Part shown: one piece after another, positions 7,381 to 63,160 of the stretch | How positions within the stretch are numbered: position 1 is the stretch's first letter | How the letters are laid out: every line of letters begins with the position of its first letter | Source of the DNA: Eledone cirrhosa | Taxonomy: Eukaryota | Assembly (NCBI GenBank): GCA_964016885.1 | Contig: OZ024740.1 | Coordinates: 219,418,001-219,482,000 of the forward strand | DNA: 64,000 nt | Direction: 5' to 3' | The notes under the pieces: generated by a model | Told to the model about the DNA's origin: nothing | The model's input: the letters and a program-made list of their open reading frames with translations, nothing else | The model's database searches: none | Translations under genes and position numbers: made by a program

Positions 7381-8290
7381 TATAAAAAGTTGATAAGGTC
7401 TGAGGCTCACAGAGAACACTTCCATAGGCCACATGTCAACTCCTGCTTTAGAGAAAGAGAAATATAAATTTTCAGATTATATTTTTACCGAAAAAAAATA
7501 ATGTTAGATAAATTGAAGCAACTAAATGTTGCAAAGAAGTGATTTGGAAATATCTTAATATTATTGGTCATTTGGTAGGATTGTGTGGCATAATATAGGC
7601 TTACATCTATGACATGTGTGGCTGTAAATGTAGGAAGTAGTCAGATCAAAAGTGAATCACAGATTTAGCTTCCATTGTCTGTCTACTCAACAGGCTTACA
7701 AATACCCAATACTTCATTTGCAGATTCCTAGGTGTTCACAGACTACCTGTTTAGAACTACTGTCCTTAAGCAAAGCTTCAGTTTATCTTGATGTAATTAT
7801 AGTTGTGCTATTGGTAACAAAAAGAACCTTCTTAAATCATTACTGTACAGCATACTGCAGCTCATACAATATATGTTATTTGACTTAAACAGAAAAGTTT
7901 ACTTTCATTACACATAACACACTGTGCTACATATTGTAGCTTATACACAAATGTATCTTATCTAATTATCAACCAGACATTGGAGATTTAGAAACAGAAC
8001 ATAACATTTTCTTTTACAGAAGCTGCAGGATATGGATTCTAGATAGAAGCTGTTTTACTATTTCACTATCCCAGTTGAATCTAAACATTTATTTCAAATA
8101 TGAATATTTGATCTATAAATTCGACAAAATGTTAAATTATCTACAAATGTGTTCAAAGGTTAACTTTCCTCATGCTGTTATTTAGCATTCGCTATCGAAG
8201 CCTTTACTTTTAGTCAACAACATATTCAGAATTTCAATTCCAGATTCTGTTCTTAGTCTCAGATATTATATCTATCATATGTAATTGTTA

Positions 8291-8472
8291 TAATTGTTTC
8301 TACTTTTGGCACAAGGCCAGAAATTACCCAGTGCATTACTGGTACTTTATTTTATCGACCCCGTAAGGATGAAAGGCAAAGTTAACCTCGGAGGGATTTG
8401 AACTCAGACCATAAAGGACCGTAACTCTATACTGCAAAGCATGGTGTCCGACTCTCTACCGATACTGCCAAT
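8291..8472 (-). mobile_element. tRNA-derived SINE with Deu/Nin-like domain
   Basis: Reverse complement of the GAGTTCAAATCCC..TTTGCCTTTCATCCTTACGGGGTCGATAAAATAAAGTACCAG family. Confidence 0.85.
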
Positions 8473-8798: not shown

Positions 8799-11700
8799 TC
8801 ATCATCATCATCATCATCATCAACGTTTAACGTCCGTGTTCCACGCTTGCATGGGTTTGGACGGGGGTTTTCCCACTTGAGGCAAGAGTGATTGTCTTGC
8901 TCGCATAGGACTGTCTGGCAGGTTTTCTACAGTTGGATGCCCTTCCTAACACCAACCACATTTACAGTGTGGGTCTGGGAGGTTTTTACCGTGTTGCCTA
9001 CACGGCCACATTACAGCGTGGACTGTGTGTTTTTTTGTCGTGACACCTACACGATCTCATTTGTTTCGGCCTGGATGGTGTGGCACCAACATAACTTTAC
9101 ATAGAAGGGGGCGGTGTGGTGGGGGTGGTGGGACAGGGTGTGTTTTGTTAGAGATGCCTACTGACTGTAGTAGGTTTTACTTTGTATTTAGGTAAGGCGG
9201 GTCTTCTCTATTACTGAGTACCGCCAAAGGTCTCGGTCCAGTGACATTGTCTTGGTGAGGTGTAAGTGTGTGAGGTCGGAGTTTATCAGCTCGTCCCAGG
9301 TTTTTCTGGGTCTGCCTATTCCGTGGCTACCGTCTATCTTTATTACCCTGCACTTTGTTATACAGCTATCGTCCTTCATGCGCATCACGTGACCATACCA
9401 ACGTAGCCTTCTCTCTAGTAAACAACATCTGATCCCTCTTATTTCTAATTTTTTCCTTAGTTCGTTTATGCTTTGTCGTTCACGTATATTACTATTACAC
9501 ATCCAGCAGAGCATGCAAGCTTCGTTTCTCTCTAGTCTGCGTATATCCTCTGCACACAATGCCCAGGTCTCACTGCCATGCAACAATGCTGTTTGTATGC
9601 AGGCATCGTACAGCCTGCCTTTCATTTTTAGGGAGAACCCTTTAGCGGCTAATAGTGGTATAAGCTCGCTGAACTTTTTCCACCCAGTTCTGACTCTAGC
9701 TACTGTACTTTCAGAGCACCCTCCACCACTGCTGATTTTGTCACCCAGGTAACGGAAGCTGTCCACTATTTCTGTATAACCCTCTGCGCAGTTGAAAGAG
9801 CTAGTATTTTGTGGGCACTTGCTGCTACTTATTGCCCCAGAACACCGGCCACATGTAAAATCTATGTTCTTAGTTAGCTTACCTGTGATCCCACTACATC
9901 TTTTATGCACCCAAACTTTGCATTTGGGACACAATATGGAATTTCTACCTACGCCTTTCCTACACTCTGCGCATGGCCACTTCCCGGAGGGGACCGCTGC
10001 CTTATTTTCTTTCTTACAAACTAGAACTTTAGTCTTAGCCAGGTTAATTTTAAGGCCTTTTGATTCTAGGCCGTGCTTCCATGTTTGGAATTTCTTCTCT
10101 AGCTCGGCCATTGATTCAGCTATGAGCATTAGATCATCTGCATATAGGAGTTCCCATGGGCAGCCGGTCTTGAACTCCTCTGTTATAGCCTGAAGGGCAA
10201 TAATAAATAGTAGGGGGCTAAGAACAGAGCCCTGATGGACACCAACTTTTACGCTAAACTCTTCACTATATTCGTTGTTAATTCTAACCTTACTGACTGT
10301 TTCTTTATACATGGCTTGTATAGCTCTCACAAGCCATTCATCAACACCTAGTTTTCTAAGAGCCCACCAGATAATGGAACGGAGGACTCTGTCGAAGGCC
10401 TTCTCCAAGTCGACGAAAGCTAAGTATAGGGGTTTACTTTTAGCTAGGTACTTCTCCTGTAGTTGTCGTACAATGAAAATAGCGTCTGTGGTACTTTTTC
10501 CTGACACAAACCCGAACTGCATTTCATCTAGATCAATTCGCTCTCTGATTAGTTGCGCTATTACTTTTTCCGTGACCTTCATGACCTGGTCGATTAATTT
10601 AATGCCTCTATAGTTACTCCTATCTAGGGCATCTCCTTTACCCTTATAACAGTTAACGATAATGCTGCTACGCCAGTCCTTCGGAACAACCCCATTCTGT
10701 ATGACTTGGTTGACTATCCGGGTGACCATGGTGTGTCCCACCGTACCAGATGCCTTCAGCATCTCGGCAACTATTTCCGAAGGCCCAGCCGCCTTGCCTG
10801 TCTTCATATCTTTGATTGCCTTACTTATTATACTACCCTCAACTAACACTGCTGGTCCCTCTATTGGGTCAATGTGGGGGAGACTGTCTTTCTCCCATTT
10901 ATTCTCCTCATTTAGTAGCCTTTCATAGTGACACTTCCAAGCTACCTTCTTATCGGCGTCGGTGATGGCAAGTACGCCGTCATTATCGTTAAGTACACAC
11001 TTCTCCCCGACAATATCACTGTTTTCCTTGACACATTGCCTAGCAATCCTGAACACCTCACGTTTTTGGTCCTCACGTTGTAGAACATGCTTGAACTTTC
11101 TTTCCTCTGCTTCCCTTCTTGCGAAGTACACTTGTCTCCTAGCTTCCCTCCTGGCCACTTGATAGTCTTCTCTGCTTCCACCATCCCGCCATACTTTCCA
11201 AGCCTGCTTTTTGGCCTTAATTGACCCCTCCACCTTACTGTTCCACCACCATGTTACTCTCCTCCTGCCTACAGGCCTGCTCCAGCCACAGACTTCGTCT
11301 GCCGCCGTCAGCAGGTTTGCTTTCAGGAATTCCCACTGTTCCTCTACCTTGTACGTCTCTAATTGCTCTTCCTCACTGTCGAAAGCATCAAGTAATATGC
11401 TTTGGAATTTATTTTTGGCTGTGGAGTCCTTTAGCTTCCATATTTTTCTCCTGAGGATAGTCCTCTTCTGTTGTCTAGTACGTCTCGTCCTGACTATTAG
11501 GTCGCTAATTATCAGTCTATGTTGGGAAGTGCATTCTTCATGGGGGAGGGATTTAGTGTTTACGACAGTCACTTTGTCACGTCTTCTGGTAAGGATATAA
11601 TCTACCTGGCTAGTATGTTCCCCTGATCTGTAGGTGATCAAGTGATTGTCTCGTTTTTTGAAGTTAGTGTTGCAGATAGTTAGGTTATTTGCGTCGCAGA

Positions 11701-12420
11701 ATTCCAGGATTCTGGAGCCTTCCTCATTTCTAATACCAAACCCATAGCCTCCATGGATTTCGTCGTAGCTGTCACAATGTTGTCCAACGTGACCGTTTAG
11801 GTTGCCTGCAATAATTATATAGTCACTGTCGGTTATTTGGGAGGTGTGAGCATCAGTGTCTCATAGAATCTGTCTTTTATAGTGCTGGGCAGTCCGGATT
11901 GGGGTGCGTACGCGGATATTACTGTCACCATAGTTCTATTGAGGACAAGTCTTATTTTAATTATTCTGTCGTTCACTCTATTTACGTCTATTATCTTATC
12001 TGCCCACTTTTCTGCTACCATGATTCCTACTCCACCCAGCCCATTGTCGTTTCCCACCCAGAAAAGCTTATAGCATCGTTTTCTACCCAAAATGTATCTA
12101 GCAGATCCACCCCTCCACCTGGTCTCTTGAATACAACAAACATCGACCTCCTTACGTTCAAGCATTTCTACAACCTCGTTAGAGCGACCCTTTAAGGTGC
12201 CTACATTCAAGGTACCAAATCTGAAGTTTTGGATTCCGTTTGAGGGGTTGGAAAGGTGGGGAGCGGGGGGAGATGGGGTTATGTTAGCCATCCGCGGCCG
12301 AAACAAAGAGGCATGCTCGCATTCTCGTCCACGAGGTGTGATTGTCTTTAACTTTGGCATTGTCACTGAGCGTCCAGATTTTTCTCTCTTCAACTCTCCG
12401 GAACTCCGTAGTCCTTCCAT
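8799..12420 (-). mobile_element. Near full-length RTE-clade LINE, family A (5'UTR may extend further right)
   Basis: APE + RT coding region, ~390-bp 3'UTR, (GAT)n tail read as (CAT)n at 8800-8822; no TSD found. Confidence 0.93.
9188..12420 (-). pseudogene. RTE ORF: AP endonuclease, reverse transcriptase, Cys-rich insertion; one frameshift near 11850
   Basis: GTLNVGTL, CIQETRW, SAYAPQ, GNLNGH, SQVDYIL, SQHRL; RT motifs QFGF, FVDLEKAFD, GVHQGSVLSPLLF, LLYADD, FRYLG; RRLRWYGHVMR. Confidence 0.93.
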
Positions 12421-13189
12421 CCTACATATCGAAGGCGACCAGTTAAGCGATAGTATAGGCCTCTGGCTTATGATTGGTCCACGTAATAATAATGGTGGTG
12501 TGTGGGGACGGGAGGGAGGGGTGTTGAGTTGTTAGCGAGAAGGATAGGTTTAAGTGAGAACCCCGTATTAACGAACAAAAATACAAGATTTGTTTAGTAA
12601 AATACGCCAAAAACTTCCGTATTTTTACAAGCATGACAGAAATACAAGAGATTTGTTTTGGAAAATACATGGGGAATGGAAAGAGGATAGAAAAAATGCT
12701 ATTGGAAGGACTAAAAATGCTGTTGGAAGGACTATGGAGTTAGGCGTATGTTAGAAGAGGTAGAAAAATGAGTACATTACATTATAACCATGAATGAATG
12801 AAGTTCAGCCACAAGTTTGGCGAAAGTGAATTACTTTGTCTTATATATGTATATGGGTTGGGTAGAGAGAGAGAGAGAGGGGTGGTGCTGGTGCTTTGAC
12901 CGCATGTTGTAGAGTGTGGTGGAGAAGATATTAAGGAGCGGGAATTAAGAGTTTGAAATAATAACATATATTTAAAATATTGTTAAGAGTTTGAAGTAAC
13001 AAATATATTTAAAATATTTGTATATGAGAAGAGTAGGTTTTAGCGAGAAGGACTCATGTGATAAAAATATAATCTACCTGTGTATGTGTGTGTGTGTATG
13101 TAGGTATGTATATGTCTTTATGTATATGTATATACATACACATATATGTGTATTATATATATATGTGTGTATATACATATATATATGTC

Positions 13190-13243
<54 letters not shown>

Positions 13244-13658
13244 AGTGGACATGGAAATATTCGGTTTGGTGCCCGAGCATATGGTTAGCCCACCTCTAAT
13301 TCTTGTAAGGACATCCTTCTAGGAGAAGAAAAACTTTGATGTAAAACCTGTGATACAATGGTGGCCAATGATGTTGATCTGTTCTTCTTTTTGCATACCT
13401 GATTCTATTGTTCAGAGAGTGGGATGGTGCAGTGCAAGGCTTTTCTTCACTTAAAAAAAGTTTCAAGTACAGACATCATTGGTTTAAACGACGTTCACGT
13501 GTGTTGGCCTTTTCTTCTTTTTTTTTTGCTGCAGCATATGAAGAAAGGAATCTAAGTCCTTAGAAGGGCTAAAAAAAAAAGTCATGTTTGTGCCACCCAT
13601 ATACGACAAAGAGGTCAAGGGATAGCTATTGTTGAAACTGAGATGCAGCCATTATATG

Positions 13659-13848
13659 TAGGTGGATTGGCAGTATCGGTAGAGGGTCGGACGCCATGCT
13701 TTGACGCATAGAGTTACGTCCCTTGCCATTCTCAGTTCAAATCCCGCCGAGGTTAACTTTGCCTTTCATCCTTACGGGGGCGATAAAATAAAGTACCAGT
13801 AATACACTCGGTAATTGCTGGCCTTGTGCCAAAAGTAGAAACAATTAT
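13659..13848 (+). mobile_element. tRNA-derived SINE with Deu/Nin-like domain, full length
   Basis: GGTGGATTGGCAGTATCGGTAGAG head, GTTCAAATCC B-box, conserved core, AAAAGTAGAAACAATTAT tail. Confidence 0.88.
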
Positions 13849-14642
13849 ATGTATGTATATATGTATGCATGTATGTATGAATGTATGTATGTATGGATGG
13901 ATGGATGTACATACACATATATGTACACTGAAATATACATATTGGTGAAAGCCTTAAGATATATTGTTTGCTTGCTGTAAAGTTGCTTAAATCAACGTAT
14001 TTAAACCTTCCTAATTTCATCTTTTAGCTGTAGTGATATTGATGCATGTTACTGGCTCTTTATAGTAGACAGGGTCAATGTGAATAGTTTAGATATTGCT
14101 ACCAGGATTTGAACTTTTAGTTGATAGATTATATAGCATCAGTCAGGTGTTTATTTTTGTTTGTGATTAGTGTATGTTAGCATGTAGTTAGTTCAGTTGT
14201 TCAAACAACATAATATTCATCATGGAAACTCATGAAGAGCCAGATTATGTATATGTATGTATGTGTATGTGTATATACACATACACTGACACACACACAT
14301 ATATTTATATACATACAGACACACACAGGGACGCACACAGGGACACATACACAGACACATATATATCTATATATATACACATGGTGGCTGCCAACTCGTT
14401 TTCGAGTACGGCCACTACTTTATATCCATGTAGGAGAACCCCTACCAATGCGCTGAACGAGGACCTTTTAGTCCAGCCAGCGACTTGAAAACTCTGGTAC
14501 AAACACTACACCTGTGACAATTATTGACACATAGTGCTGGGCCCATGGTACCATGTGACGACAAGTGCAGAGAGATCAGAGATCTCCAGATATAAAGCAA
14601 TGCCTGTGCACATATATATATACATACACACAAACACACACA

Positions 14643-17468
14643 CATCATCATCATCATCATCATCATCATTTTACGTCCGCTTTTCCCTGCTTGCAAGGGT
14701 GGGACGGATCTTATTCAGCACAGCATCTCTCCACTCGTCACGGTCCTTTGTCATCGCCACCGTGAGCTTCAATGATCTGAGGTCTGTTCTCACCACCTTC
14801 GCCCATGTTTTTCGTGGTCTACCTCTACCACGTCTTCATTCAACTCGCATTTCCTGGCACTTCTTCACCCATCGGTCATCCTCCATGCGCATCACATGTC
14901 CATACCACCTCAGTCTCCTCTCCCGTACACTACATTCTATCTCTCTCAGACACAGTTTCTCTCTCAACACATTTATGCTGGGTCGTTCACGCACATTTAC
15001 ACTGCACATCCAACGGAGCATGCTTGCCTCATTTCTCTCCAGCCGTCACATATCCTCTGCAGTTGCTGCCCATGTCTCACTACCATGCAGCATCGCGCTC
15101 CTCACACAGGCATCATACAACCGGCCTTTCGTACGCAGGGAGAAACCCTTCTTTGTCAACAGAGGAAGCAGCTCCCTAAACTTCTTCCAACCCGTCCTTA
15201 TTCTAGATACTATGGCCTCGGAACACCCTCCTCCCATGCTAATCTGATCTCCTAGGTACCGGAAGCTATCCACCATTTCTATAGCGCCCTCCTGCATCTG
15301 AAAAATGTGTCTATCAATGCGACTTCTACTGTCTAATTTCCCTGTACATCTACTGCATACATATTTCTCCCTACCTGTTAGTTTGCCTGCTATCCCGCTA
15401 CATCTCTTGTGTACCCAGGATCTGCATTGTGTGCATTTTATAGAATTTATGCCAGTTCCTTTTCTGCATATCGAACATGGCCATTTCCCTGACGGAATCA
15501 GGGTTTTGTCCTCTTTTCTACCCATCAACACTTTTGTCTTAGCTAGATTCACTCTCAGTCCTCTTGCTTCCAACTGCTGTTTCCATAGCCAGAATTTATT
15601 CTCTAGCTCCTCTACTGATTCTGCTATAAGAACCAGATCGTCAGCATAGAGAAGTTCCCATGGACAGCCAGTCTTAAACTCCTCTGTTATGGCTTGGAGG
15701 ACTATAATGAACAAGAGCGGGCTGAGGACCGAACCCTGATGTACTCCTACTTGTATCTGGAATTCCTCACTAAACTCCATTCCTACCCTGACTTTACTGA
15801 GAGTACCTCTGTACAAAGTTTGCACTGTCCTCACAAGCCATTCCTCAACACCTAGCTTCCTTAGGGACCACCAGATGACAGATCGGGGTACCCTATCAAA
15901 GGCCTTCTCTAGGTTAACAAAGGCTAAGTATAGTGGCTTATTCTTCTCTAAGAACCTCTCTTGCAATTGTCTCACCAAGAAGAGGGCATCTGTTGTACTC
16001 TTCCCAGGCACAAAACCAAACTGCATCTCATCTAGTTTGACCCTTTCTCTAATTAGTTGTGCTAAAATCCTTTCTGCCACTTTCATAACCTGATCTATCA
16101 GTTTTATACTCCTATAATTGCTCCTCTCCAGAGCATCCCCTTTACCTTTGTAGCAATTTATGAGAATACTGCTGCACCAGTCTTTGGTATGACATCACCA
16201 TATATAGCCTGATTGATGATGCGTGCAACCAGTTTAGTGCCTACCTCCCCTGATGCATTTTTCATTTCCCTAATCGCCTCTTGGACCCTATATTCGTCAA
16301 TCTCAATAGCTGGTCCCTCTGTCGGATCTACCAAGGGTAATTTCTCACTCTCCCATTTGTTCTCCACATTCATCAGTCTCTCATAATGACATTTCCAGGC
16401 CTCCTTTTGCTGATCATTCGTGACACTAAGTTCACCGGCATCATCCCGGACACATTTATCTCCAACAACATCCTGATTTGCATTGACACACTGCCTTGCA
16501 ATGTGGAACACCGCACGCCTTGGCAAACCTCCTACTCTCTGCCTCCCTGCGTGCTAAGTACACCTGACGTCTAGCTTCTCTCTTAGTGGCTGTATATTCT
16601 TCCCTACTCCCACCCTTTTTCCAAGCCTTCCATGCTAGTCTTTTGTCTCTAATAGCCTTATCTACTGTGCTGTTCCACCACCAGGTCACTCTCTGTCTGG
16701 TTGGAGCTCTGCTCCAGCCCCAAGTTTCATCAGTAGTCTGCAGCAAGTTGTCACGTAAGAAATTCCAGTTATTATCTATGTCATACGTCTCTAAATCGTC
16801 TTCTTTTTCGTCATATACATCTTGAAGGGCTTTCCTAAATTTGTATTTTAGTGAAAGGTCTTTTAGCTTCCAGACCTTTCTTCTCCACACCTTCCTATAT
16901 GTCTCATTCCATCTCTTGCTTACTGAGATATCACTAACAACTAACTTATGCTGTGGGGTACATTCTTCCCCAGGGTATGCTTTGGTATTAGACACTATCT
17001 GCCTGTCCCTCTGCCTAACTAGTAAGAAGTCAATCTGGCTTATGTGCTCACCAGATTTGTAGGTTATTAGGTGATTGGCAGGTTTCTGGAAGTTTGTGTT
17101 GCAAATAGTCAATGTACCTGCATCACAAAATTCAAGAAGTCTCACTCCTCCTTCATTTCTTGAACCGTAACCGTGCCCACCATGTACCCCAGTGTAACCA
17201 TCCTGGAGCTGTCCAACATGACCATTGAAGTCTCCTGCTAGCATAACGATGTCTCCGTCCTCTGTCATTGCGGTTGTTTGCAAAAGTTGCTCATAAAAGC
17301 AGTCTTTCTCATCTTTGCCTAGGCCTGCTTGGGGAGCATAGGCCGAGATGATTGTCAGTAGTCTCCTACCTACAACTAATCTAAGCTTAATTATTCGATT
17401 ACTAACTCGAACTACCTCTATTGTCTTATTGATCCATTTCTCAGCCAGGAAAATGCCTACTCCCCCTA

Positions 17469-17469
<1 letters not shown>
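14643..17469 (-). mobile_element. RTE LINE family B, 5'-truncated within APE, with several disablements
   Basis: ORF pieces 16456..17502, 16158..16526, 15046..16086, 14836..15021 with SAYAPQ, GDFNGH, QFGF, LLYADD, RRLRWYGH; short 3'UTR and (GAT)n; 5' junction into (TA)n/(CA)n. Confidence 0.92.
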
Positions 17470-17518
<49 letters not shown>

Positions 17519-17520
<2 letters not shown>

Positions 17521-18072
17521 TGTTATACTTTGGGAGGGTCATGTTGCCAATAAGAAACACACACACCAGTTGCTTTCACTTCAATTTATTATAAATTAAA
17601 TTTATAAATTTAGGAATTTATAAATTTCCGGTTGGTTGGTTGGTTCCACAAACAGATGATTGTTCATATATTGTCAAAGTTCTTTCGTCACACATTCTGT
17701 GACCTCTTCAGTGACTGAGGATTCTTTTCTTTGCTTTTGTGCCTCTCCTTTGTTCTGTCCTACGCCATCTTGTTTTTGTGCGTGTTGTGTGCTTAGTTTG
17801 CGCATGTGTTACATCCGGGTATCTGTGTGTGTAGAGGCACAAAAGGAGAGGCACAAAAACAAAGAAAAGAATTCCCAGTCACTGAAGAGGTCACAGAATG
17901 TGTGACGAAAGAACTTTGACAATATATGAACAATCATCTGGTTGTGGAACCAACCAACCGGAAATTTATAAATTCCTAAATTTATAAATTTAATTTATAA
18001 TAAATTGAAGTGAAAGCAACTGGTGCGTGTGTTTCTTATTGGCAACATGACCCTCCCAAAGTATAACAATAT
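17519..18072. mobile_element. Inverted pair of Penelope-like pLTRs (arms ~17519-17763/17831-18070), each with a hammerhead
   Basis: ~240-bp inverted repeat; terminus ATGACCCTCCCAAAGTATAAC shared with the GIY-YIG element end at 31603. Confidence 0.8.
17878..17920 (+). ncRNA. Minimal type I hammerhead (mirror copy at 17673-17715, minus)
   Basis: GUCA-CUGAAGA-G-GUCAC-AGAAUGU-GUGAC-GAAA-G-AA-CUU-UGAC; stem I GUCA/UGAC. Confidence 0.78.
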
Positions 18073-18126
18073 CGGTTTCAACACACGTTTTCAGATAAAG
18101 AATCTTGCTAAACAAATTCAGAAACG

Positions 18127-18182
<56 letters not shown>

Positions 18183-21256: not shown

Positions 21257-22233
21257 AAGTTTTCCTATCCAGATGTTATAGCCAGAAACTAAGTTTTCCT
21301 ATCCAGATGTTATAGCCAGAGACTAAGTTTTCCTATCCAGATGTCATAGCTAGAGACTAAGTTTTCCTGTCCATATGTTATAGCCAGAGACTAAGTTTTC
21401 CTATCCAGATGTCATAGCTAGAGACTAAGTTTTCCTGTCCATATGTTATAGCCAGAGACTAAGTTTTCCTGTCCATATGTTATAGCCAGAGACTAAGTTT
21501 TCCTATCCAGATGTTATAGCTAGAGACTAAGTTTTCCTGTCCATATGTTATAGCCAGAGACTAAGTTTTCCTGTCCATATGTTATAGCCAGAGACTAAGT
21601 TTTCCTGTCCATATGTTATAGCCAGAGACTAAGTTTTCCTATCCAGATGTTATAGCTAGAGACTAAGTTTTCCTATCCAGATGTCATAGCTAGAGACTAA
21701 GTTTTCCTGTCCAGATGTTATAGCCAGAGACTAAGTTTTCCTATCCAGATGTTATAGCTAGAGACTAAGTTTTCCTATCCAGATGTTATAGCCAGAGACT
21801 AAGTTTTCCTGTCCAGATGTTATAGCCAGAGACTAAGTTTTCCTATCCAGATGTTATAGCTAGAGACTAAGTTTTCCTATCCAGATGTTATAGCCAGAGA
21901 CTAAGTTTTCCTGTCCAGATGTTATAGCCAGAGACTAAGTTTTCCTATCCAGATGTTAGAACCAGACTAAGTTTTCCTGTCCAGATGTTATAGCCAGAGA
22001 CTAAGTTTTCCTATGCAGATGTTATAACCAGACTAAGTTTTCCTATCCAGATGTTATAGCTAGAGACTAAGTTTCCCTATCCAGATGTTATAGCTAGAGA
22101 CTAAGTTTTCCTATCCAGATGTTATAACCAGAGACTAAGTTTTCCTATCCAGATGTTATAACCAGACTAAGTTTTCCTATCCAGATGTTATAGCTAGAGA
22201 CTAAGTTTTCCTATCCAGATGTTATAACCAGAC
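21257..22233. repeat. 34-bp minisatellite, ~29 copies
   Basis: Unit AAGTTTTCCTATCCAGATGTTATAGCCAGAGACT; some 32-bp variants toward the right end. Confidence 0.97.
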
Positions 22234-23244
22234 TCTGGTTTTGATGTTTAAGATCAAAGTAATGTAATGAGTGACAGATTTATGTGGAGATTTATCATTG
22301 AGTCTACCTCAGCTGAAGCCACCCAGAGGTGGACAATACCATGTTTGTTTGAACTCAAACTAAACTCCCCCCCCCCCCCCCAAAAAAAAACAATAAAAAA
22401 TCTTAATTATTTTAAAAACAAATCTTTAAATTATTCATTCAGCTGTTTCAATATTAGGAGTAATGTTGCTTCTTTAATTGAAACATACCTTAATGTATTA
22501 GCAACAATGCCAGCATGTTAGAGCAGGGACATGTAATTGAAAAAAATATTGAAAAAAATTGTATAGTTAATGAATAAAAATTTTCAGAATAGAATAAAGT
22601 AATACTTTTTTTTACCTAAATTCAATATTTGATTAGAGTCTTAGTTCTTCATTTCAATTTTGTTAATTATAATTTCCAGTCAGGGAAGGCTATATAATGA
22701 TATTACTGAATTGAGCTATTACCAAAATTATTTTCCATCATGTATCATTAATAATCATCTATACTAACAACTCTCCCCATAATTTACCTTTTATTTTTAT
22801 TATTATTATCATCACAACCACTAACACCACCATCATCATCCTCTGCCTTCTCTTTCATCTCTTCTTCTTCTCCCCTCCCTTTCACCCTCCTCCTCCTTCT
22901 CCACCCCCACACTTTATTTTATCATTTTATGGTCTTTGCACTCATTTTCTCCCCCAATACTGTTTGCAATGTTTTTATTTTTTATCACTCAATCTTATCC
23001 TTTCCTTTCATATTTACTTCTTTTAATTTTATATCTATCTTTCCTCTTTTCTTATCGATGGCCTAAGACAATATATATATATATATATATTCATATAAAT
23101 CATGTTTGTCTGTCTGTGTGTCTGTCCACTGCTGCTACTGCTATATCAGCCATGAGAAATTCATGTATCATGTGGTATTAGATTCAAGCAAGAAATCTAA
23201 TGGCATTGATATAAGTTTAAATTACCACCCTGCTCAACAATAAT

Positions 23245-28830: not shown

Positions 28831-30014
28831 ATAGTCAAGTTGGACAAACCTACTAACAAACTTAGGCAGGCACAGGAACTTCTTCAGGATTCTCAACAGT
28901 GCATTTCTCTTCATTCTATGAAAAGCTTTTAGTAGCTTAACAAATACCTGATAAAGGGAGAAGTCCTTGCTCTATGAACTTTTCTTGCAGTAACTCATGG
29001 TGGAGTCATGGGGGTGCTGTACATACATATGGCGTTTCTTGTGCATTTTTTAAACCTGATGGTGCCCATCCCTTCTTCAGGTTTGAACACAGCTGATTTC
29101 TTTTAAAACAGGAGAAAGAATGATAGAAAAGAATTGAAAGGTACTTTTTTTTTATCAACCTCAAAAGGATGAAAGGCAAAGTCGACCTTGGTAGGATTTG
29201 AATTCAAAGAGCAAGAGAGCCAGTACAAATACTGATAAGCATTCTATCAGTAACTATTGGGAAATATTTCCCAGACACTTACTAAATCAATTTCAGACAA
29301 ACATATGCTCCATTGTTGTCTTGGAGTCTCAATGTGGTTTTGAATAAGGTAGCAGAGCATGTTTTACTTGCACATTCCATTTTTGGCATGGTTTCTATAG
29401 TTGGATACCCTTCTATGGCTGGATGCTCTTCCTAACACAAAAGCTTCAAACTTCATAGAGTGTACTAGATATATTTTATCATATCATTAACACTTGAGAG
29501 GTTTTTAAGTTCCAAGCAGAGGTTAATGGTTCTTCATGATTGAATGTTTTCTCCATGTTCCCCAACCACTTTACAGGGTGTACTGCATGCACTTTATCAT
29601 GACACCTACATTTGTGAGGTTGACTTAAATCTTGTAAGACTATAAATGCTGAAAAATGGTTGGCATCAAGAAGAGCATCTAGTTGTATAAACCATGTAGG
29701 GATTCACCATATGACCTCACAGAATATGTCAACATATCAAACCATGAGAACATGGAAAACGGATATAAAACAGTAATGATGATGATGATGATATATATAT
29801 TTAAATAATGTTGAAAACCAAACAATGCATTAGGAAGAACATTAAATCGCCAAGATAACAAAAGAATCTTATCTTAGTAAATTTAATGATCCCAAATATT
29901 TTCAGGTTTAAAAATCCATTATCGATAATGGGTCTTTAAACTTTAAATTATTTAAATTTATGTTCCCTATTCAACAATGCTTCAAGCAAGCTACAAAACT
30001 CTGTTATAAATATA

Positions 30015-30522
30015 TATATATAAATGTATATATAGTCTATTTTGCAATACACTGTATGCTTAATTAAAAGCATTTTGAAGACCATATGCTATTGTTTTAA
30101 AGTAGCGACATTGTTGCTTACTTAAATTTTCGGCATACAGTGTATTGCAAAATACACTGTATATACATTCATATATATATCGCTATTTCAGAGCACCAAT
30201 TCTAATTTTCAATTTCTGCTGGGCCAGCGACCACTCTGTAAAATCAGTTCCTGATTGTTACTGGAATTCTATAAGAATCCAACACACATAATTTTCGACA
30301 GATGGGGAGAGTAGTGAGTTTTGATAAGTACCAAATAGTACGAAACAGCGCTGTCAACTTATCTCTCCCTGTCTGCCGAAAATTTAAGTAAGCGACAATG
30401 TCGCTACTTTAAAACAATAGCATATGGTCTTCAAAATGCTTTTAATTAAGCATACAGTGTATTGCAAAATACACTATATATGCATTCATATATAAATCCC
30501 TAATTCAGAGCACCAATTCTAA
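30015..30522 (+). mobile_element. Hammerhead-containing unit with 317-bp period, ~73-bp direct terminal redundancy and 5' inversion, in TA tract
   Basis: Direct repeat 30133-30205/30450-30522; inverted arms ~30015-30135/30374-30494. Confidence 0.75.
30316..30360 (+). ncRNA. Type I hammerhead with mutated core (UUGAUAA)
   Basis: GAGUU-UUGAUAA-GUAC-CAAAUA-GUAC-GAAA-CAGCGCU-GUC-AACUU; palindromic stem III ACAGCGCUGU; stem I extends via GGAGAG/CUCUCC and GACAG/CUGUC. Confidence 0.72.
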
Positions 30523-30802
30523 TATATATATATATATGAGTTCCATACTGTAAATGAGGTCAGTGTTAGGAAGGGCGTCCAGCTGTAAAATACCCAGCCA
30601 AATTTACAGTCCTCGCCGGAGCCAGGTGCGACATAGCCAACCCTGGCCAGACTTGCCTCCCAGCGTAGACAGGCCGTCTAATCCATGCAAGTGTGAAAAA
30701 ATGGACGTTAAGTGATGATGATGATGATGATTATGATGATATATATATACATACACACATGCACACGCATAAACATACACACACACATATATACATGATG
30801 AA

Positions 30803-31159
30803 GGCGCATGGCTTAGTGGTTAGAGCATTGGGCTTGCAATCGAAAGGTTGTGAGTTCAATTCTCAGAGCGAGTGATGTGTTGTTTCCTTGAGCAAGACAC
30901 TTTATTTCACATTGCTCCAGTTTACTCAGCTGTCGAAATGAGATGATAGGGACTGGGGTCCCTATCATTCCACTACAAAGTGGTCGTGGAAGTGCCACGG
31001 CAAAAAAGCACCCAGCCCAACTGTAAAGTGGACGTGGAGGCGCCACGGAAAAAAAGCACCCAGACTCACTGTAAATGAGGTTGGTGTTAGGAAGGGCATC
31101 CAGCCGTAGAAATCAAGCCAGAATCAGTTCCCGTCTCACCCTTGCAAGCAGGGAAAAGT
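30803..31159 (+). mobile_element. tRNA/CORE-like SINE head joined to RTE-type 3' tail
   Basis: A/B boxes and CCTTGAGCAAGACACTT domain, then RTE subrepeats and CCCTTGCAAGCAGGGAAAAGTGGACGTAAAA(TGA)n. Confidence 0.7.
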
Positions 31160-31459: not shown

Positions 31460-31797
31460 GATTTACTGCCCAATGCCAAGAGCTCAAATGCTGGGTAGTA
31501 ACTCTATTTTCTTAAGTATTGAATACTAGGCTGAACAATGGCCTTACTAGTCTACACTGGTAACTCCCACTATATTCACATATATATATATATATATATA
31601 TAGTTATACTTGGGGAGGGTCATATTGCTGTAATAATATTGCCAGAATTAATAACAGAACACACTCACTGTTTGGTTGGTTTTCACTTCTGTATCTTTTA
31701 TATCAGTTAATTCATTCGGTCCTCAATGTTTACCATTGACTGAGCAACGGTCAAAAATACAGATATAATATAGATATAAACACATATATATAGTCTA

Positions 31798-31837
31798 ACA
31801 AAGTTCTTTCGTTGCACATCTGCAACATCATCAGTGG
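31798..31837 (-). ncRNA. Minimal type I hammerhead in PLE pLTR
   Basis: CCA-CUGAUGA-U-GUUGCA-GAUG-UGCAAC-GAAA-GAACUU-UG; same GAAAGAACUU as the 17878 motif. Confidence 0.78.
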
Positions 31838-32084
31838 TACTATTATGTTCCTCCTGTTGTATTGTATGTCTACGCCATTTTTATTTTATCTGTTTATTTA
31901 TTTATTTTTATCTTTTTCTCTGTGCATGCGTTTGCGTGTGTGTATAGTGTTTAGTGTGTGTTCGCGTTAGGGTGACTGTGTTTTGGTTATTGTATTCTAT
32001 CTTAATTTACTAGTGTGTGTTTAAATGTGTTTGTTGTTATTGTGCTTGTGTATGTATTTATTTATTTATTTATTTATATTTCTC

Positions 32085-32549
32085 TTAAGTCAGTATTGTT
32101 TGGGTATGGTTGTTGTTGTTATTCCATTCATTTTTTCTGTTTAGCTTTCTAAGCTCTATTTCGCTTGCTTCTCTAATTTGTCTACCTGTTGGGTCATTTC
32201 TATGTCTAGGTATTATTTTAATTTCTATGTTGTCTATGTTACCGTCGTGTTGTTGTCTGGCATGTTCGTATAGTACTGAACCGTTTTTTCGTCCTTTTAG
32301 TTCCCCCAGTGTTGGTCTATCCTTTCTCCTATGCTTCGAGCTGTCTCGCCTATGTATGTTGTCATGTTTCTGCAAACTCCCTCTGTACATCTTATGCTAT
32401 AGACTACGTTTCTAGTTTTATAGTTTATCTGGGGGTTTACTTTACATATAACACATTTCCTATTAGTACAGTGGGTTTTCTTAAAAGGGTATGTTTTGCT
32501 GATCAGGAATTTGATGGTAGTTCCTGGCATTTCTACCACTTTAATCTTT
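32085..32549 (-). pseudogene. PLE Cys-rich linker plus GIY-YIG endonuclease, frameshift near 32300
   Basis: HCTNRKCVIC..NVVYSIRC..C..TYIGETARSIGERIDQH, then SVLYEHARQQH..DPTGRQIREASEI..LNRKNEW. Confidence 0.88.
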
Positions 32550-34678: not shown

Positions 34679-34880
34679 GAGGTGGTCGATTGGCAGTATT
34701 GGTATTGGTAGAGGGTCGGACGCCATGCTATGCAGCATAGAGTTACGGCCCTTTACAGTCCGAGTTCAAATCGCGCCGAGGTTAACTTTTTCTTTCATTC
34801 TTATGAGGTCAATAAAATAAAGTACCAGTAATGTACTAGGATAATTGCTGGCCTTGTGCCAAAAGTAGAAATAATTATTA
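34679..34880 (+). mobile_element. Deu/Nin-like tRNA SINE nested in piggyBac-like MITE
   Basis: Same head, core and tail as the 13659 copy. Confidence 0.82.
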
Positions 34881-37570: not shown

Positions 37571-38077
37571 ACAGTGTTAAACTTATGTGCTTCCTTCTGT
37601 GTGTACATTAGAAATCAAATCAAGTAATAGAGGAAGAGAAGAAGGGATCGTGGAGTAGGGGTGGAGGGAGAACAAAAGCAAAAGAAAAACCTGTTTGTGA
37701 AAGAAAGAGATGAGAAAGAAGGTGTGACCAGCTTTTCATCTTTACTTTAATCTAAAGTATATCATTTATTTGACTTACATTCCAGCTAGGACCAATCCAT
37801 CATTTTCTTTACCACATAATGCATCCATGATTACATTACCAAGTAGATTCGATTTTTTTTGTTTGTTTGTTTTGTTTAAAGATCATAAGGAGTGGTTTGA
37901 GAATTTGATTGTTCATTTCAGCAGGTCAAACTATTGTATAAATGCTAACAACTACTTAAAAACAACACAGTGATTCAACTGGTGAAGGGATGTGGCTTCA
38001 GGGTTAGCCCTTAGGCATTTACATTACTCTATATATACCATTGTATTTGTGTGGTATAGGCTTTATAATAATAATAA

Positions 38078-38268
38078 TAATTGTTTCTACGTTAGGCACA
38101 AGGCCAGCAATTACCCCAGTGCATTACTGGTACTTTTATTTTATTGACCCCGTAAGGATGAAAGGCAAAGTCAACCTCGGCGGGATTTGAACTCAGATCG
38201 TAAAGGGACGTAACTATGCTGGAAAGCATGGCGTCCAACCCTCTACCGATACTGCCAATCCACCGCCC
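38078..38268 (-). mobile_element. Deu/Nin-like tRNA SINE, full length
   Basis: Reverse complement of 49433-49622; (AAT)n tail. Confidence 0.88.
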
Positions 38269-38270
38269 TA

Positions 38271-38306
<36 letters not shown>

Positions 38307-48244: not shown

Positions 48245-48413
48245 AGAGGTTCAGACGCCATGCTTTGCAGCATAGAGTTACAGTCCTTTACGGTCTGTAT
48301 TCAAATCCCGCTGAGGTTCACTTTGTCTTTTATTCTTACGGGGGTCGATAAAATAAAGTACCAGTAATACACTGGGATAATTACTGGCCTTGTGTCAAAA
48401 GTAGAAACAATTA
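48245..48413 (+). mobile_element. Deu/Nin-like tRNA SINE
   Basis: Core GGGGTCGATAAAATAAAGTACCAG and family tail. Confidence 0.82.
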
Positions 48414-48645
48414 TTGTTCGAGTGCTATGTATGATATTTTGCACTATCTGTTCTGGGTCTATGCTGTCTCAATTCAAATCCTGTTTCTTGTCACCAGAAA
48501 AAGGTTGACATGATAGAACTGGAGCCTCAGTCGTTAAAATAGCCCAGAAACCTCCTATGAAATGCTATTTCATAGAAGATTAGCTAAGCTTATAACTGGT
48601 GTGAGATGTAACAACAAACACACACACACACACACACACGCACGC

Positions 48646-48681
<36 letters not shown>

Positions 48682-48685
<4 letters not shown>

Positions 48686-48733
48686 TATTTCTGGCAATAT
48701 TATAACAATATGACCCTCCCCAAATATAACAAT
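48682..48733 (+). mobile_element. Extreme 3' stub of the 31603 PLE family
   Basis: TTCTGGCAATATTATAACAATATGACCCTCCCCAAATATAAC is the reverse complement of ~31603-31648; lies between (CA)n and (TA)n. Confidence 0.75.
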
Positions 48734-48967
48734 ATATATATATATACAAGTGAATGAATGAAGGCCAGTAACTCCTTCATTCACTTGTTTATACCTGCTC
48801 TGCTTGATCACTCTACTAAATATTAAATCCTCTCTAATATTTAACTCTGCTAATCCAAGCATTGAGCATATTTCACTTCGGCTATCGGTATTTAGTAATC
48901 TGTATCGCACCTCTCTGTATCCCCCTCTCTCCTCCTCTCCTACAATACATATATCCTATTATTATTA

Positions 48968-49622
48968 TCTGAGTTCAAATCCCGCCGAGGTTAACTTTGC
49001 CTTTCATCCTTACGGGGTCGATAAAATAAAGTACCAGTAATACACTGGGTAATTGCTGGCCTTGTGCCTAACGTAGAAACAATTATTATATATATATAAT
49101 GGACGGTGGATTGGCAGTATTGGTAGAGTGTCGGACGCCATGCTTTGACTTATAGAGTTACGGCCCTTGTCATTCTGAGTTCAAATCCCGCCGAGGTTGA
49201 CTTTGCCTTTCATCCTTACGGGGGTCGATAAAATAAAGTACCAGTAATGCACTGGGTAATTGCTGGCCTTGTGCCAAAAGTAGAAACAATTATTATTATA
49301 TATATAATTGTTTCTACTTTTGGCACAAGGGCAGCAATAATCCAGTGCATTACTGGTACTTTATTTTATCGACCCCCGATGAAAGGCAAAGTCAACCTCG
49401 GCAGGATTTGAACTCAGAATGACAAGGACCAATGGCGGTGGATTGGCAGTATCGGTAGAGGGTTGGACGCGATGCTTTGCAGCATAGTTACGTCCCTTTA
49501 CGGACTGAGTTCAAATCCCGCCGAGGTTAACTTTGTCTTTCATCCTTACGGGGTCGATAAAATAAGGTACCAGTAATGCACTGGGTAATTGCTGGCCTTG
49601 TGCCAAAAGTAAAAACAATTAT
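48968..49622. mobile_element. Cluster of four young Deu/Nin-like SINEs (+,+,-,+)
   Basis: Copies at ~48968-49088, 49100-49295, 49305-49430 (minus), 49433-49622. Confidence 0.88.
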
Positions 49623-52600
49623 TATTATATATATATATATATATATATGGCCTAGTTTCAGACCAATCATAATTACATAATGATTATGCAATGAAACTTC
49701 ATAGGAGATGGGGGCTCCTCAAATGAACATAAAGATTGTCTGTTAAAACTACTCTCATATATATATAATGTGTGTGTGTGTTTGTGTGCGTCTAATGGTA
49801 TAGTTTATATGAAGTATCGTAGTTAAGATTGTTTTGTGAAGCTGGTATAATGCAAATTGGAAATGCAAGCATCAAAACTAGGGTAAAGTAAGAAAAATAA
49901 AATAAGAAAATAGTTTAGAGCTGGGGTTAAGAGGTTGGGGGTTTAAACTGTTAATGTATATTAAATTATATTTCCAAAAATGAGGAACTGGTGTGAGGTT
50001 TTGACGATGAGCAGATATGCCTAAATAGATAGATAGATATGGTTAAATAAATAGATAGATAGGTCTAAATAGATAGATAGATAGGTAGATAGATAGATGT
50101 CTAAGTAGATAGATACATAACTTTCTTTTTATTTGCCACCAGGACATCAAAAAGTGGGACAAGTACAATGGGGGGAGTTTACATAAAAAAGGCGTCCTCA
50201 ATAAGGAGGAGGCAATAACAAGATATAAAAATAAAATAAAATATAAAAATAAATTTAATAACAAAATCCTCAATAGGGAAGAGGCGCCTTGGGGGTCGCA
50301 CACACCCTCGAAAAAAAGTGTGCAACCCTTCTCCTCAGGAGCACAGAGAGGGGGGTGCTCCCTTGATCTTTCATCTTCCTCACCTATAGTCTGATGTAGA
50401 GTGAAGGCCCATTCACACGGGCCATTATCGCCACTTTCACCCATCTTTCATAGAAACGGCTGGGGTGCAGCACCTCTCTCTCCATCCTGATCCTTCTTCC
50501 GAAATGATATCGGAAGAAACGGACCAGTTGTTGGCCAGAGAGAAAGGTGTCTGACCTCAGTCCTTTCAGACGCGTCCACCATAAACCACTTTCGCCATGG
50601 CTATTACGCACAGAAACACCGCCTCTTCTTCGTTTTTGAAGAGGGGAGGCGGCTTGATCATTACAATAGACTCGGTGGTCAACCGGATTGGTCCCACCCT
50701 TGACAGCAGTTGTTCGACATAGCCCCACAGATCGGCAATGCCCGAGCAGTGTACCAATGCGTGTGCAACGGTTTCCTCGTCGCACACGCATCTGGGACAG
50801 ATCTTTTTCGAGGGGTCCTTATCCAGGCGCCCGTGTCTGTAGAGCCTTTCTCGAACGGGCAGATCCCGTCGGTAGCACTGCCAGGCCAGGGACCTCTGGA
50901 AGTTATCCATGTGTCCCGGGCTGAATGTCCTACCGAACAGGTTGGCCAGTTCGTCTTTCTCCATGCCTAGGGCTTCTCCGAGGGCGTCGTCGCACCTGCT
51001 AACCACCAGTCCTCTATAGAATGATGAGGTGGATTCTCCACTGACAGCCGGGTCCGCCTGCCAGAGAGCCGTGAGCGCCTGGGCACACTCGGTGTGCCAG
51101 GCGCCCAGTTTTCTTGGTCTTTGCTTGACCCAGGATTGCAGCTCGGTGAGCGAGACGAGTCTGGGAAAAGCTCGCCTCACAAACGGGGTCCACACCGGTT
51201 GACCGGTGAGGAATACCTGGAGGTGCCGTAGCCTTAGTGCGTGTTTACGTATCATTAGCCACGGCATCCCCAGCCCTCCTTTCGAAGGGTGTTGACAGCA
51301 GATGGATCTCCTCACCATAGGAGCCCGCTTGTTCCAAAGGAATTGGAAGAGTGTGCGCTCCATTTTGGCGAGCGTTTCCCTTGGGCAAGGCACAACAGTC
51401 AGGTGGTAGTAGATAACGGACGCTATATAAGTGTTCGCCACCTCCGCCCGACCTTTCAGGGACAGTTTGCACTCGGCCCACTTCTGGGTCAGTGCAAACA
51501 CCCTGTTCGTCACCTCACCCCAGTTCTTCTCCACCTGGAGGTCTGGTCCGAACCAGAACCCGAGCAACTTCACCGGGCCTTCCGTCCAGCGCCCGATGAC
51601 GCCATCGGAGGGCATCGATCTGCCCCTCCACGTGCCGAGTTGCAGACCGATCGACTTGTCCCGGTTCAGCTTAGCCCCTGTAAACCTTTCGTACTCCTCC
51701 AGTAAGGTGCCGATCGCCCCGATTTCCGAGGCCGTCGACACCATTACTGTTACGTCATCGGCGTAGGCTGACACCGCTTTCCGCAATCCCGGTTCCAACG
51801 GGATGCCCTGCAACAACTCCTACTTCCGCAGCAGTGGCTCTAGAGTCATTACATACAGAAGAGAGGAGAGAGGGCACCCTTGTCGGATGGACCGCGTGAT
51901 TTTGAACAGCTCCGAGAGGTAGCCGTTCACCTTGACACTAAAGCAGATGCGGCTGCTGTGCATGGCATTGATCCAGCCCCTGAAAACGGGTCCAAAGCCT
52001 GCCGCCACTACACCGCATCCAGGTAACCATGGTCGACCCTATCGAACGCCTTAGATTGATCCAAGTTGATCAGGGCCCCACCAACGCCGGGTCGTTCCCA
52101 ACCCTCTCTATGATGTATCACATAAGGTGGAGGTTGTCGTGGATGGACCTGGACGGGATAGCGCATGTCTGCGCATCTCCCACCAGGTTGCCCACGACAA
52201 GCGCCAACCTCTTTGCTAGCACCTTGGCCAAAATCTGTAACTCTGTATTTAGCAGAGTTATGGGCCTGAAATTATTTATATCGTCCCCCTTGTTCTCGTC
52301 ATTCCTCACTAGCGTGACTACGCCCTTGGTCACAGCACAGGGAATTCTCCCGTTCTGTTGCCAGTTGCAGTAGACCGCCTCGAGGAGATCGGGGAACAAG
52401 TCCGGCATAGCTAGATATAGTTCGTATGGAAGACCATCGAGACCCGGGGATTTGCGTTTGCTGAATTGGCTCAGCACGTCCTCTATCTCAGCGGCTGAAA
52501 TCGGCTCCTCGCAGGACTTCACCTCCCTGTCCGAGAGACGCGGCAGGCCGTCGAGGTATGGACCGAAGTCCACTTCCCCAACCGGCTCCCCGCCCCTTCC

Positions 52601-53230
52601 GAACAATCTGGCAAAGTGCTTTTGAAAAGCCTCGCACATCTACTTAGGTTCAAGGATTACCCGTCCATCCTGGTCTCGCAAAGACCGGATAGTGGATCTA
52701 CTCCCTCTTTTGGCTTCTGTCACGCAGGCCCAGCTAACAGCTTTGGTCCCCTCGTTTCCCAGAGCACGTATTTTGCTTCGGACGATGCAGCCTTCGTGTT
52801 TTGCGTTGAAGAACTGGCCCAGGGCCGTTCTTGACGCTAGCACTCTGGCCACGTAGCCACTTCTAATTGCCTCTTCTACACTATCTACCAACTCCCTTTC
52901 CTTCCTATTTCTATTTGAGGCTAACTCCTTACTAAATTCTATAGAGACTACTCTAATCTCTCTTTTGAGAGATCCCACCACCTGCTGTTGACGATGGCGC
53001 CCGTCAACCGCTCCTTAACTAAAGTGCTAATCCAGTCCCTGTAAGCCTTACTTTCCGGTAAGGACAAGTTGAGCTTCCAGTAACCGGGTCCCTGTCTATG
53101 CGTTCTGTCAAGGTTGACCATGCAGGTCACTAACTTGTGGTCTGAATAGCCAACCATGCGCATTTTTGGACAACTTAAAAAGTCCTTATCCTTATTTCTA
53201 ACTAAGAACCTATCTAGGTACTACCTAGAT

Positions 53231-61969: not shown

Positions 61970-63160
61970 TATTTATATGGTCTTTATATAGACTTTATTT
62001 GGTTTTTATATGGTTTTTAATGTTCTTTTAAGTAGTTTTTATAGAGATTTTAATGATCTTTATATACTCTTTACAGTGTCTTTAGATAGTCTTATATGTT
62101 CTTTATACAGTCTTTATATAGTGTTTATATAGTGTTTATATTGTCTTTATATGGCCTTTATATTCCACCAGTGGTGCCTGTGTAGGATCATTCATGTGTC
62201 CTGGCACAACCGAGTGTGAAACAAAAAAAATCCTGCAGGATGCCGAGTCGTGGACATTGCAGAGGATGGTCATGGAGCACCAGTTTTACCTGGCTGGCCA
62301 TATTCTGCGCCTGCCTAATAATCGACACTCAAAAACAGTAATGAACTGGACTCCACCTGGCGGGAAACGGCATTGCCCCAGGATCACCTGGTGACGAACG
62401 TTCCAAAAAGACCTGATGGCAGCCAACATCACTTGTTACAGATGTGAAAAAGCCGCTGCTGATTGTGACCATTGGTGACTACTTACTGCTCAATGGGCCG
62501 AAAGGCATGGAAGAACCTAAGACAAAGACTAAGTCTTTGTATAATCTTTATATGATCTGTGTATAATCTTTATATGGATATGGTCTTTAATTTTTATCTA
62601 GTCCGTATATAGCTTTTATATGGTCTTCATATTTTTAAATAGTCTTTATATAATCTTAATAGTCTTTATATTCTCTTTACATGGTCTGTATATGGTCTTC
62701 ATATAGTGTTTATAAAGCTTTATACGATCTTTGTATGGTTTCTATATAGTCTTTATATAGTCTGTATAATTTTTATATGGTTTTATATAGGTTTTATTTT
62801 GCCTTTATATTGTCTTGATATTGTTTGTTAACTTTGCCTTTCATCCTTACAGGGTCGATAAAATAAAGTACCAGTAATGTACTGGGTAATTGCTGGCCTT
62901 GTGCCAAAAGTTGAAACAATTAGTTTTATGTTGTCTTTATATAATATTTATATAGTCTTTATATGATAATTATATTGTCCTTATATTGTCTTTATATGAT
63001 AATTATATTGTCCTTATATTGTTTTTATATTGTCTTTATATGATCTTTATATTGTTTTTATATGATAATTATATTGTCCTTATATTGTCCTTATATTGTC
63101 TTTATATTGTCCTTATATTGTCTTTATATTGTTGTTATATGGTTGTTATATTGTTCAGGT
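61970..63160. repeat. Degenerate ~11-bp TCTTTATAT(AG/TG) repeat field hosting RTE and SINE fragments
   Basis: Direct reading; SINE 3' half at 62828-62921. Confidence 0.75.
62190..62532 (+). mobile_element. RTE 3' fragment
   Basis: LAGHILRLPNNRHSKTVMNWTPPGGKR..PRITW*RTF..DL; CTAAGAC-type tail. Confidence 0.75.

Follow-up and report, generated by a model that had tools for sequence, protein, structure and literature searches.

Two copies of a pLTR, each carrying a minimal hammerhead motif, face each other on opposite strands at 17517-18128 of the window (the whole 64,000-nt stretch of Eledone cirrhosa DNA that was analysed). This arrangement raises the question of how two inverted copies come to lie head-to-head in one target, and whether their hammerheads act as a pair. 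A preliminary description of the locus had proposed ~240-bp arms with a common 3' terminus, a link to a Neptune-type element in the same window, and dimeric cleavage. We examined the insertion, its family in public reads and its relatives, and we compare them below with published systems as these appear in the accessible parts of the papers cited.

Anatomy of the head-to-head insertion

Alignment of the left arm (17517-17751) with the right arm (17842-18072) gave 96.2% identity over 235 columns, which bears out an inverted pLTR pair with arms of ~240 bp. The arms differ by five substitutions and one 4-nt indel. These differences were rejected as proof of two templates, since only the 4-nt indel is a shown variant of the family and 17873 is private. 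The insertion and its target consist of the following parts.

17468-17520, no strand: microsatellite target on the left, (AT)n(AC)n(AT)n, directly beside a presumably RTE-like LINE whose truncated 5' end is at ~17466
17517-17832, minus strand: left copy, a 5'-truncated pLTR of ~315 nt that stops after codon 7-8 of a putative ORF and is followed by (AT)n
17833-17841, plus strand: 9-nt junction filler, a slip duplication that exactly repeats 17847-17855 of the right copy
17842-18072, plus strand: right copy, a 5'-truncated pLTR inverted relative to the left copy
18073-18128, plus strand: one-sided 3' tail, ~56 nt of family sequence, followed by (AT)n
18128-18181, no strand: right target microsatellite, (AT)n

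Most of the 90 nt between the arms is not a foreign spacer. Minus-strand alignment to the region upstream of the hammerhead in the neighbouring element (31603-32549) identified it as mostly upstream pLTR: 81 nt (17752-17832) are the native upstream pLTR of the left copy, and the right copy is without them. Public reads show the reverse complement of 17752-17832 as the native sequence ahead of 17842, which assigns this stretch to the left copy itself, and the native continuation after 17832 in the reads differs from the sequence of the window. Opposite-strand joints at 17752/17842 were considered as repeated inversions and rejected, since they represent native continuity through the left arm.

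At the outer ends, (AT)n lies on both sides of the insert, and a target duplication is unreadable within it. The left copy meets (AT)n at once and the right copy enters it only after the tail. Of the claim that both arms reach the same 3' terminus, the similar ending therefore stands, but the right arm runs on for the ~56 nt of the tail as family sequence.

Two 5'-truncated pLTR copies lying head-to-head in (AT)n almost certainly represent a known insertion type of Penelope-like elements (PLEs). The inverted insertions of endonuclease-positive PLEs, as presented in the available parts of PMC8557442 and PMC3846280, share with the pair the truncated head-to-head pLTRs, the one-sided tail and the (TA)n target, and their pLTR ends inside the first codons of the ORF, as that of the pair probably does. 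Unlike them, the pair carries no ORF body, its tail is ~56 rather than 30-40 nt long, and its junction holds a 9-nt duplication instead of a palindrome. The locus is a dead remnant of a high-copy PLE.

The shared terminus as a putative ORF start

Four copies of the terminus are present in the window, two in the pair and the others in a truncated element and a short stub.

18047-18130, plus strand: putative ORF start with 28 codons open (MTLPKYN...), which includes both the common terminus and the tail
31603-32549, minus strand: related family, a 5'-truncated PLE with a frameshifted GIY-YIG endonuclease end, a 3' region, a hammerhead core at 31834 and the MTLPKYN terminus
48683-48730, plus strand: terminal stub of ~48 nt that resembles the 31603 family more closely and leads into (AT)n

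All four read ATG ACC CTC CCN AAR TAT AAC, and both differences among them within these seven codons are synonymous. The match of the terminus to the 31603 element and to the stub, noted before, holds as a homologous end but is inexact, with one mismatch to the element and two to the stub. From its codon pattern, the common terminus is probably the start of an ORF beginning with MTLPKYN. Three of the four family variants listed in this region are synonymous, the non-synonymous one being at 18074 (among 40 variants listed, with 36 further). The reading also fits the available part of PMC3846280, in which the first 12 codons lie within the pLTR and the tail continues to codon 22.

At the protein level, the peptide motif [GS][FY][ND]TR, which was picked post hoc, turned up in 2 of the 270 other proteins compared, both of them full-length relatives, where it sits at residues 8 and 9. 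Comparison of the N-terminal peptide with the relatives was not significant: the best score of 34 came from proteins without the motif, and 67 of 2000 shuffles equalled it.

Abundance and variation of the family in public reads

The stretch 17752-18128 was compared at 85% likeness with 4 of 23 public runs, so that a family-wide tail end beyond 18128 lies outside the compared stretch. In organism A, 13,977 contig pieces of run X1 and 634 of run X5 matched the family, as did 138,508 of 12,467,656 reads of X21, a reduced-representation and biased sample; these tallies are signs of abundance and give no copy number. Depth at 17842 was 59.7 in X1, against 267,985 at 17848, and 19 reads in X21, against ~72,000. 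This collapse indicates that the junction is close to private.

Most of the depth continues past 18072 into the tail, and copies that stop at 18072 and pass into (AT)n were recovered as 153 contig pieces in X1 and 2,637 reads in X21. Molecule ends of X21 at 17806, 17966, 18003 and 18118 were rejected as biology, since they fall at CATG or AATT words, which we take to be library restriction sites; the drop at 18118, coinciding with such a word, is therefore not the end of the tail.

In run X4 (organism B), a contig matched 17842-18104 with one substitution and a 4-nt indel at a depth of ~8. Only three pieces matched in this run, and contamination, diet and transfer are indistinguishable as their source.

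Hammerhead motifs of the pair and its neighbour

The two mirror hammerheads of the preliminary description were recovered in the pair, with cores at +17882 and -17711, and a third has its core at -31834 in the neighbouring element. Hammerhead positions follow the customary numbering, and the NUH rule is used in its general form.

17673-17715, minus strand: hammerhead of the left copy, minimal type I, core starting at 17711
17878-17920, plus strand: hammerhead of the right copy, minimal type I, predicted cut after 17916

Each arm carries a CUGAAGA core, one extra G (before G10.1 at 17878-17920), a 6-bp stem II, GAAAGAACUU and a 4-bp stem I. Helix III at 17878-17920 has 2 bp closed by an AA loop, in agreement with the 2-bp stem III described earlier, and GAAAGAACUUUG, said to be conserved, is indeed invariant in all three hammerhead rows. 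Stem II reads GUCACA/UGUGAC in the arms and GUUGCA/UGCAAC in the 31603 element. The covariation claimed for it was upheld in that pairing is kept and two pairs are changed on both sides, but the stem is 6 bp long, not 5. Counted over all the rows, pairing holds in 35 of 36 cells, and 3 of 12 pairs are changed on both sides; since the three rows represent only two independent families, this covariation is by itself modest evidence.

A search for the core-plus-stem-II pattern gave five matches in the window and none in each of 100 dinucleotide shuffles; two of the five belong to one further hammerhead near 1280. The Rfam search of the window returned no hammerhead among 110 matches at E<=1, and the isolated hammerhead folds were no more stable than shuffles (z -0.8 to -1.6).

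The motifs resemble the minimal hammerheads of metazoan PLEs in the accessible part of PMC4209133, being of type I with a conserved core, a short stem I of 4 bp, an enlarged stem II, the G10.1-C11.1 pair and an extra base between positions 9 and 10.1. They depart from them in helix III: the 15.2-16.2 pair is G-C and loop 3 consists of two A residues, each of them subject to A>G variation within the family, so that the segment is not palindromic in the Watson-Crick sense. Position 17 also differs, with U in the copy of the pair and A common in the family (17916 U>A in 18% of X1 depth). A non-palindromic variant of loop III was not found described in the literature searched or in the available part of the supplement of PMC4209133, and it may be known.

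Within the hammerhead, the variants listed from public reads fall only in loop II (17898), loop III (17912 and 17913, both A>G) and position 17 (17916), and none of the 40 listed (with 36 further) lies in the core or the stems. Such a distribution suggests that the motif is under selection across the family rather than at this locus.

Formation of the pair and competing readings

The pair is best explained overall, and with good probability, as a doubly 5'-truncated insertion of a high-copy, endonuclease-bearing PLE. As for the route, we consider priming from two ends reasonably likely. In this scheme, a GIY-YIG endonuclease would nick both strands of an (AT)n tract, and on each strand the RT would begin at an internal site in the ORF start, either just after MTLPKYN or ~60 nt further on, copying an RNA template uncut at the hammerhead. 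Both cDNAs would halt after 290-315 nt, and the two would then presumably be joined by microhomology and fill-in, with a slip.

Several observations bear on this scheme. Unique sequence is present on both sides, the tail on the right only and the 81 nt on the left only, which excludes one fold-back and requires a second template. Both arms run intact through the predicted cut site. The same layout recurs in a second family at 1188-1478. Less favourable are a tail longer than published ones and AATAT at the first terminus, which is native there and matches the (AT)n target.

Published work supplies parallels for individual steps. The accessible part of PMC8557442 describes an inverted 5'-truncated copy with a tail of 30-40 bp, often at one end only, and that of PMC4209133 describes minimal hammerheads in pairs, placed on opposite strands at a distance of 100-700 bp. 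In vitro, according to the available text of PMC11167929, both strands are cut and extended, and two RT start sites within the ORF define the tail; the same text gives a predicted protein dimer, AT-rich targets, uncut RNA as the main template, and hammerhead cleavage that is dispensable. PAc, the green anole Poseidon element of that study, is therefore like the pair in its two 3' end points within the ORF start, its AT-rich target and its copies made from uncut RNA. It differs in that its hammerhead overlaps the start codon, whereas the cut site of the pair lies 131 nt upstream of the ATG, and in that its start sites are without homology to the target, whereas AATAT of the pair matches it. Two-ended priming as the source of such joints was not found reported in the accessible parts of the literature examined.

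The same PLE insertion could also arise if synthesis self-primed on an antisense template and then jumped to another template, as the available part of PMC3846280 proposes for head-to-head pairs. The 9-nt duplication can be taken as slippage at the junction, and the joint of the other pair, at 1188-1373, is an almost perfect palindrome. The junction at 17833-17841, however, is not palindromic, and the unique sequence of each arm still calls for a second template; we regard self-priming as an unlikely origin of this pair. Two separate insertions into one (AT)n tract, fused later by deletion or repair, would draw on the abundance of the family and on arms that differ at five positions and by an indel that also varies in the family. 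Yet no target sequence remains between the arms, both copies are cut near the same region of the pLTR, and the layout, typical of PLEs, recurs in another family of the window, all of which makes a fusion very improbable.

Two further readings would give the pair a life of its own. As a small, non-coding, hammerhead-bearing unit bounded by inverted repeats, it might be a non-autonomous element, MITE-like or retrozyme-like, that amplifies with the arms as its termini. Against this, the three runs that reach family-level depth show deep coverage of the arms but a drop at the junction, and in non-LTR retrozymes the repeats are direct and in tandem, every one with its own type I hammerhead, unlike the inverted copies here; we give this reading next to no weight. 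Hardly more credible is the functional reading of the preliminary description, that the mirror hammerheads jointly form a dimeric ribozyme or a selected source of dsRNA. Both cores are intact and identical, and transcripts diverging from within the pair might bring one sense ribozyme each and encounter each other in trans. The cores lie on opposite strands, however, so that no transcript of the locus carries both hammerheads in sense and no dimer can form in cis, and the antisense arm is transcribed first, whichever the direction. By predicted folding, a read-through RNA would form a hairpin of about -405 kcal/mol, from which forcing the hammerhead fold would cost 73 kcal/mol. The AGAACU self-duplex is also predicted to be unstable (+2.4 kcal/mol, against -1.7 for the GA-loop variant and -4.8 to -5.0 for palindromic loops), and the junction is near-private.

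With the pair taken as a doubly truncated insertion, its hammerheads appear to be passengers at this locus. Dimer cleavage could only belong to the tandem RNA of the parent family; a cleavage role would sit in that RNA, probably as a dimer or with the help of a protein. To judge from the predicted energies, dimerisation in the family would depend on tandem purine mismatches or on assistance from a protein. If helix III is conserved and non-palindromic across a hammerhead family, that family would offer a test of the dimer rule.

As an individual locus the insertion has little weight, being one of very many PLE remnants. It provides a clean fossil for the open question of how PLE head-to-head copies form, one that excludes a single fold-back.

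The neighbouring element and its relatives

The neighbouring element at 31603 sits between (AT)n runs. Homology of the pair to it beyond the terminus, implied by the earlier claim of a link, was confirmed by a local score of 43 against a best of 38 in 500 shuffles. The alignment comprises 171 identities in 295 columns, and by its sequence divergence the link joins two diverged families, not copies of one.

The Neptune assignment of the neighbour is not supported, since its endonuclease linker places 7 rather than 25-27 residues between CxxC and the Cys position that follows. On the rows of Fig. S2 in the accessible part of PMC8557442, our own count of this spacing came to 25-27 residues for the four rows of Neptune type and to 7 for three rows of Nematis. 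With Neptune the element does share a C-terminal endonuclease, the CX2-5CxxC linker motif and (TA)n targets; its relatives differ from that clade by a long insert in the RT. With Nematis it shares the reduced linker (CxxC-x7-C) and an ending of the EA..I...LN type. Naiad features, namely an N-terminal endonuclease and no canonical hammerhead, were absent: the endonuclease precedes the pLTR at the 3' end, and the element has a hammerhead.

Searching with the endonuclease fragment of the neighbour retrieved 276 relatives at E<=0.001. The linker pattern fitted 88 of 151 relatives, of which 63 have a spacing of 7, 87 a spacing of 6-11 and one a spacing of 20. A spacing of 25-27 was seen in none of the 88 that fit, the other 63 of the 151 being unmatched by the pattern, and an E..WI..L or P.GLN ending occurred in none of 153 proteins. 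Pfam did not recognise the fragment, and the endonuclease tree gave little resolution, with 1 of 19 inner branches starred.

Four relatives contain both RT motifs, and the distance from motif A to B' is 131-132 residues in three of them and 63 in the fourth. In a wider search from one RT relative, 85 of 119 proteins were measurable and all had 129-138 residues (among the 120 of 195 proteins listed), in a set that is biased by its query. The difference corresponds to a conserved insert of ~68 residues separating motif A from B', apparently where telomerase has its IFD. Proteins P0063, P0154-P0271, P0061 and P0088 form a large group of PLEs with a C-terminal endonuclease and this insert, some of them with DUF8422 (PF28514). 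The best RT-bearing match to the fragment of the neighbour, 52.7% identical over 73 residues and labelled Octopus vulgaris in its source, also has the insert. A structure model of one relative reached a mean pLDDT of 92.3 across the insert and matched telomerase best (Z 16.4, rmsd 4.7, 330 residues aligned), within 1 Z of other telomerases.

Canonical PLEs with a C-terminal endonuclease lack the IFD according to the available part of PMC8557442, and a PLE group combining such an endonuclease with the insert is undescribed in the accessible parts of the literature searched, a set without Repbase and Arkhipova 2006. Membership of the neighbour in Nematis is not established: its linker fits, but its closest RT-bearing relatives have 129-138 residues from A to B', against 63 in a Nematis-like protein. 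The search found no protein for the family of the head-to-head pair, and the endonuclease and RT of that family are therefore deduced from the neighbour. The connection from the pair to the protein group thus involves two inferred steps, from the pair to its neighbour and from the endonuclease of the neighbour to the RT-bearing proteins.

We tentatively propose, as a possibility that we rate below even odds, that the stubs derive from an unnamed PLE lineage widespread in marine invertebrates (octopus, sea cucumber). Such a lineage would combine a C-terminal endonuclease of Nematis type with an RT bearing the ~68-residue insert at the IFD position, would form hammerhead dimers through tandem purine-purine mismatches rather than a palindrome, and would prime in (AT)n through a native AAUAU from both strands simultaneously. 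If true, the lineage would add a branch to the classification of PLEs, and its insert, of telomerase length and lying in the RT fingers, would bear on whether this feature is ancestral to PLEs and telomerase.

Flanking and other features of the window

The LINE beside the left microsatellite occupies 14644-17466, and a second LINE copy lies at 9188-12531, both on the minus strand. The two, which we take to be RTE-like, are ~65% alike, and in each the RT domain is immediately followed by a PHD-finger match (E 2.5e-06 and 2.5e-04). The idea that the PLE start is fused in frame to the adjoining LINE was rejected, as the reading frames differ. A sigma-70 scan was set aside as irrelevant to an animal element.

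The second inverted pLTR-like pair, at 1188-1478 and from another family, has 93-nt arms that meet in an almost palindromic joint; it extends by ~100 nt on one side only and is flanked by (AT)n. Its minus-strand core is intact (CUGAUGA...GAAAC), and its plus-strand core reads CUGAUUA.

Other repeats were also recognised. A hAT transposase remnant with two ORFs (DUF4371 and hAT dimerisation matches) lies at 53610-55427 on the plus strand, and a broken LINE, different in type and matching RT and zf-RVT, at 50043-53014 on the minus strand. At 29999-30523 there is an inverted repeat of ~130 nt with 95% identity (30012-30140 with 30369-30497) and AT-rich ends, and a tRNA-like sequence at 30805-30871 on the plus strand (Rfam 31.3 bits, gathering score 29) is probably the head of a SINE. 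Dispersed repeats of ~200 nt occur at 8260-8472, 13653-13875, 34681-34880, 38063-38285, 48245-48418, 48962-49649 and 62827-62931; those clustered at 48962-49649 alternate in orientation and thereby form a long hairpin around 49300. A tandem array with a period of ~68 nt, ~14 copies and 91-94% identity extends over 21257-22234.
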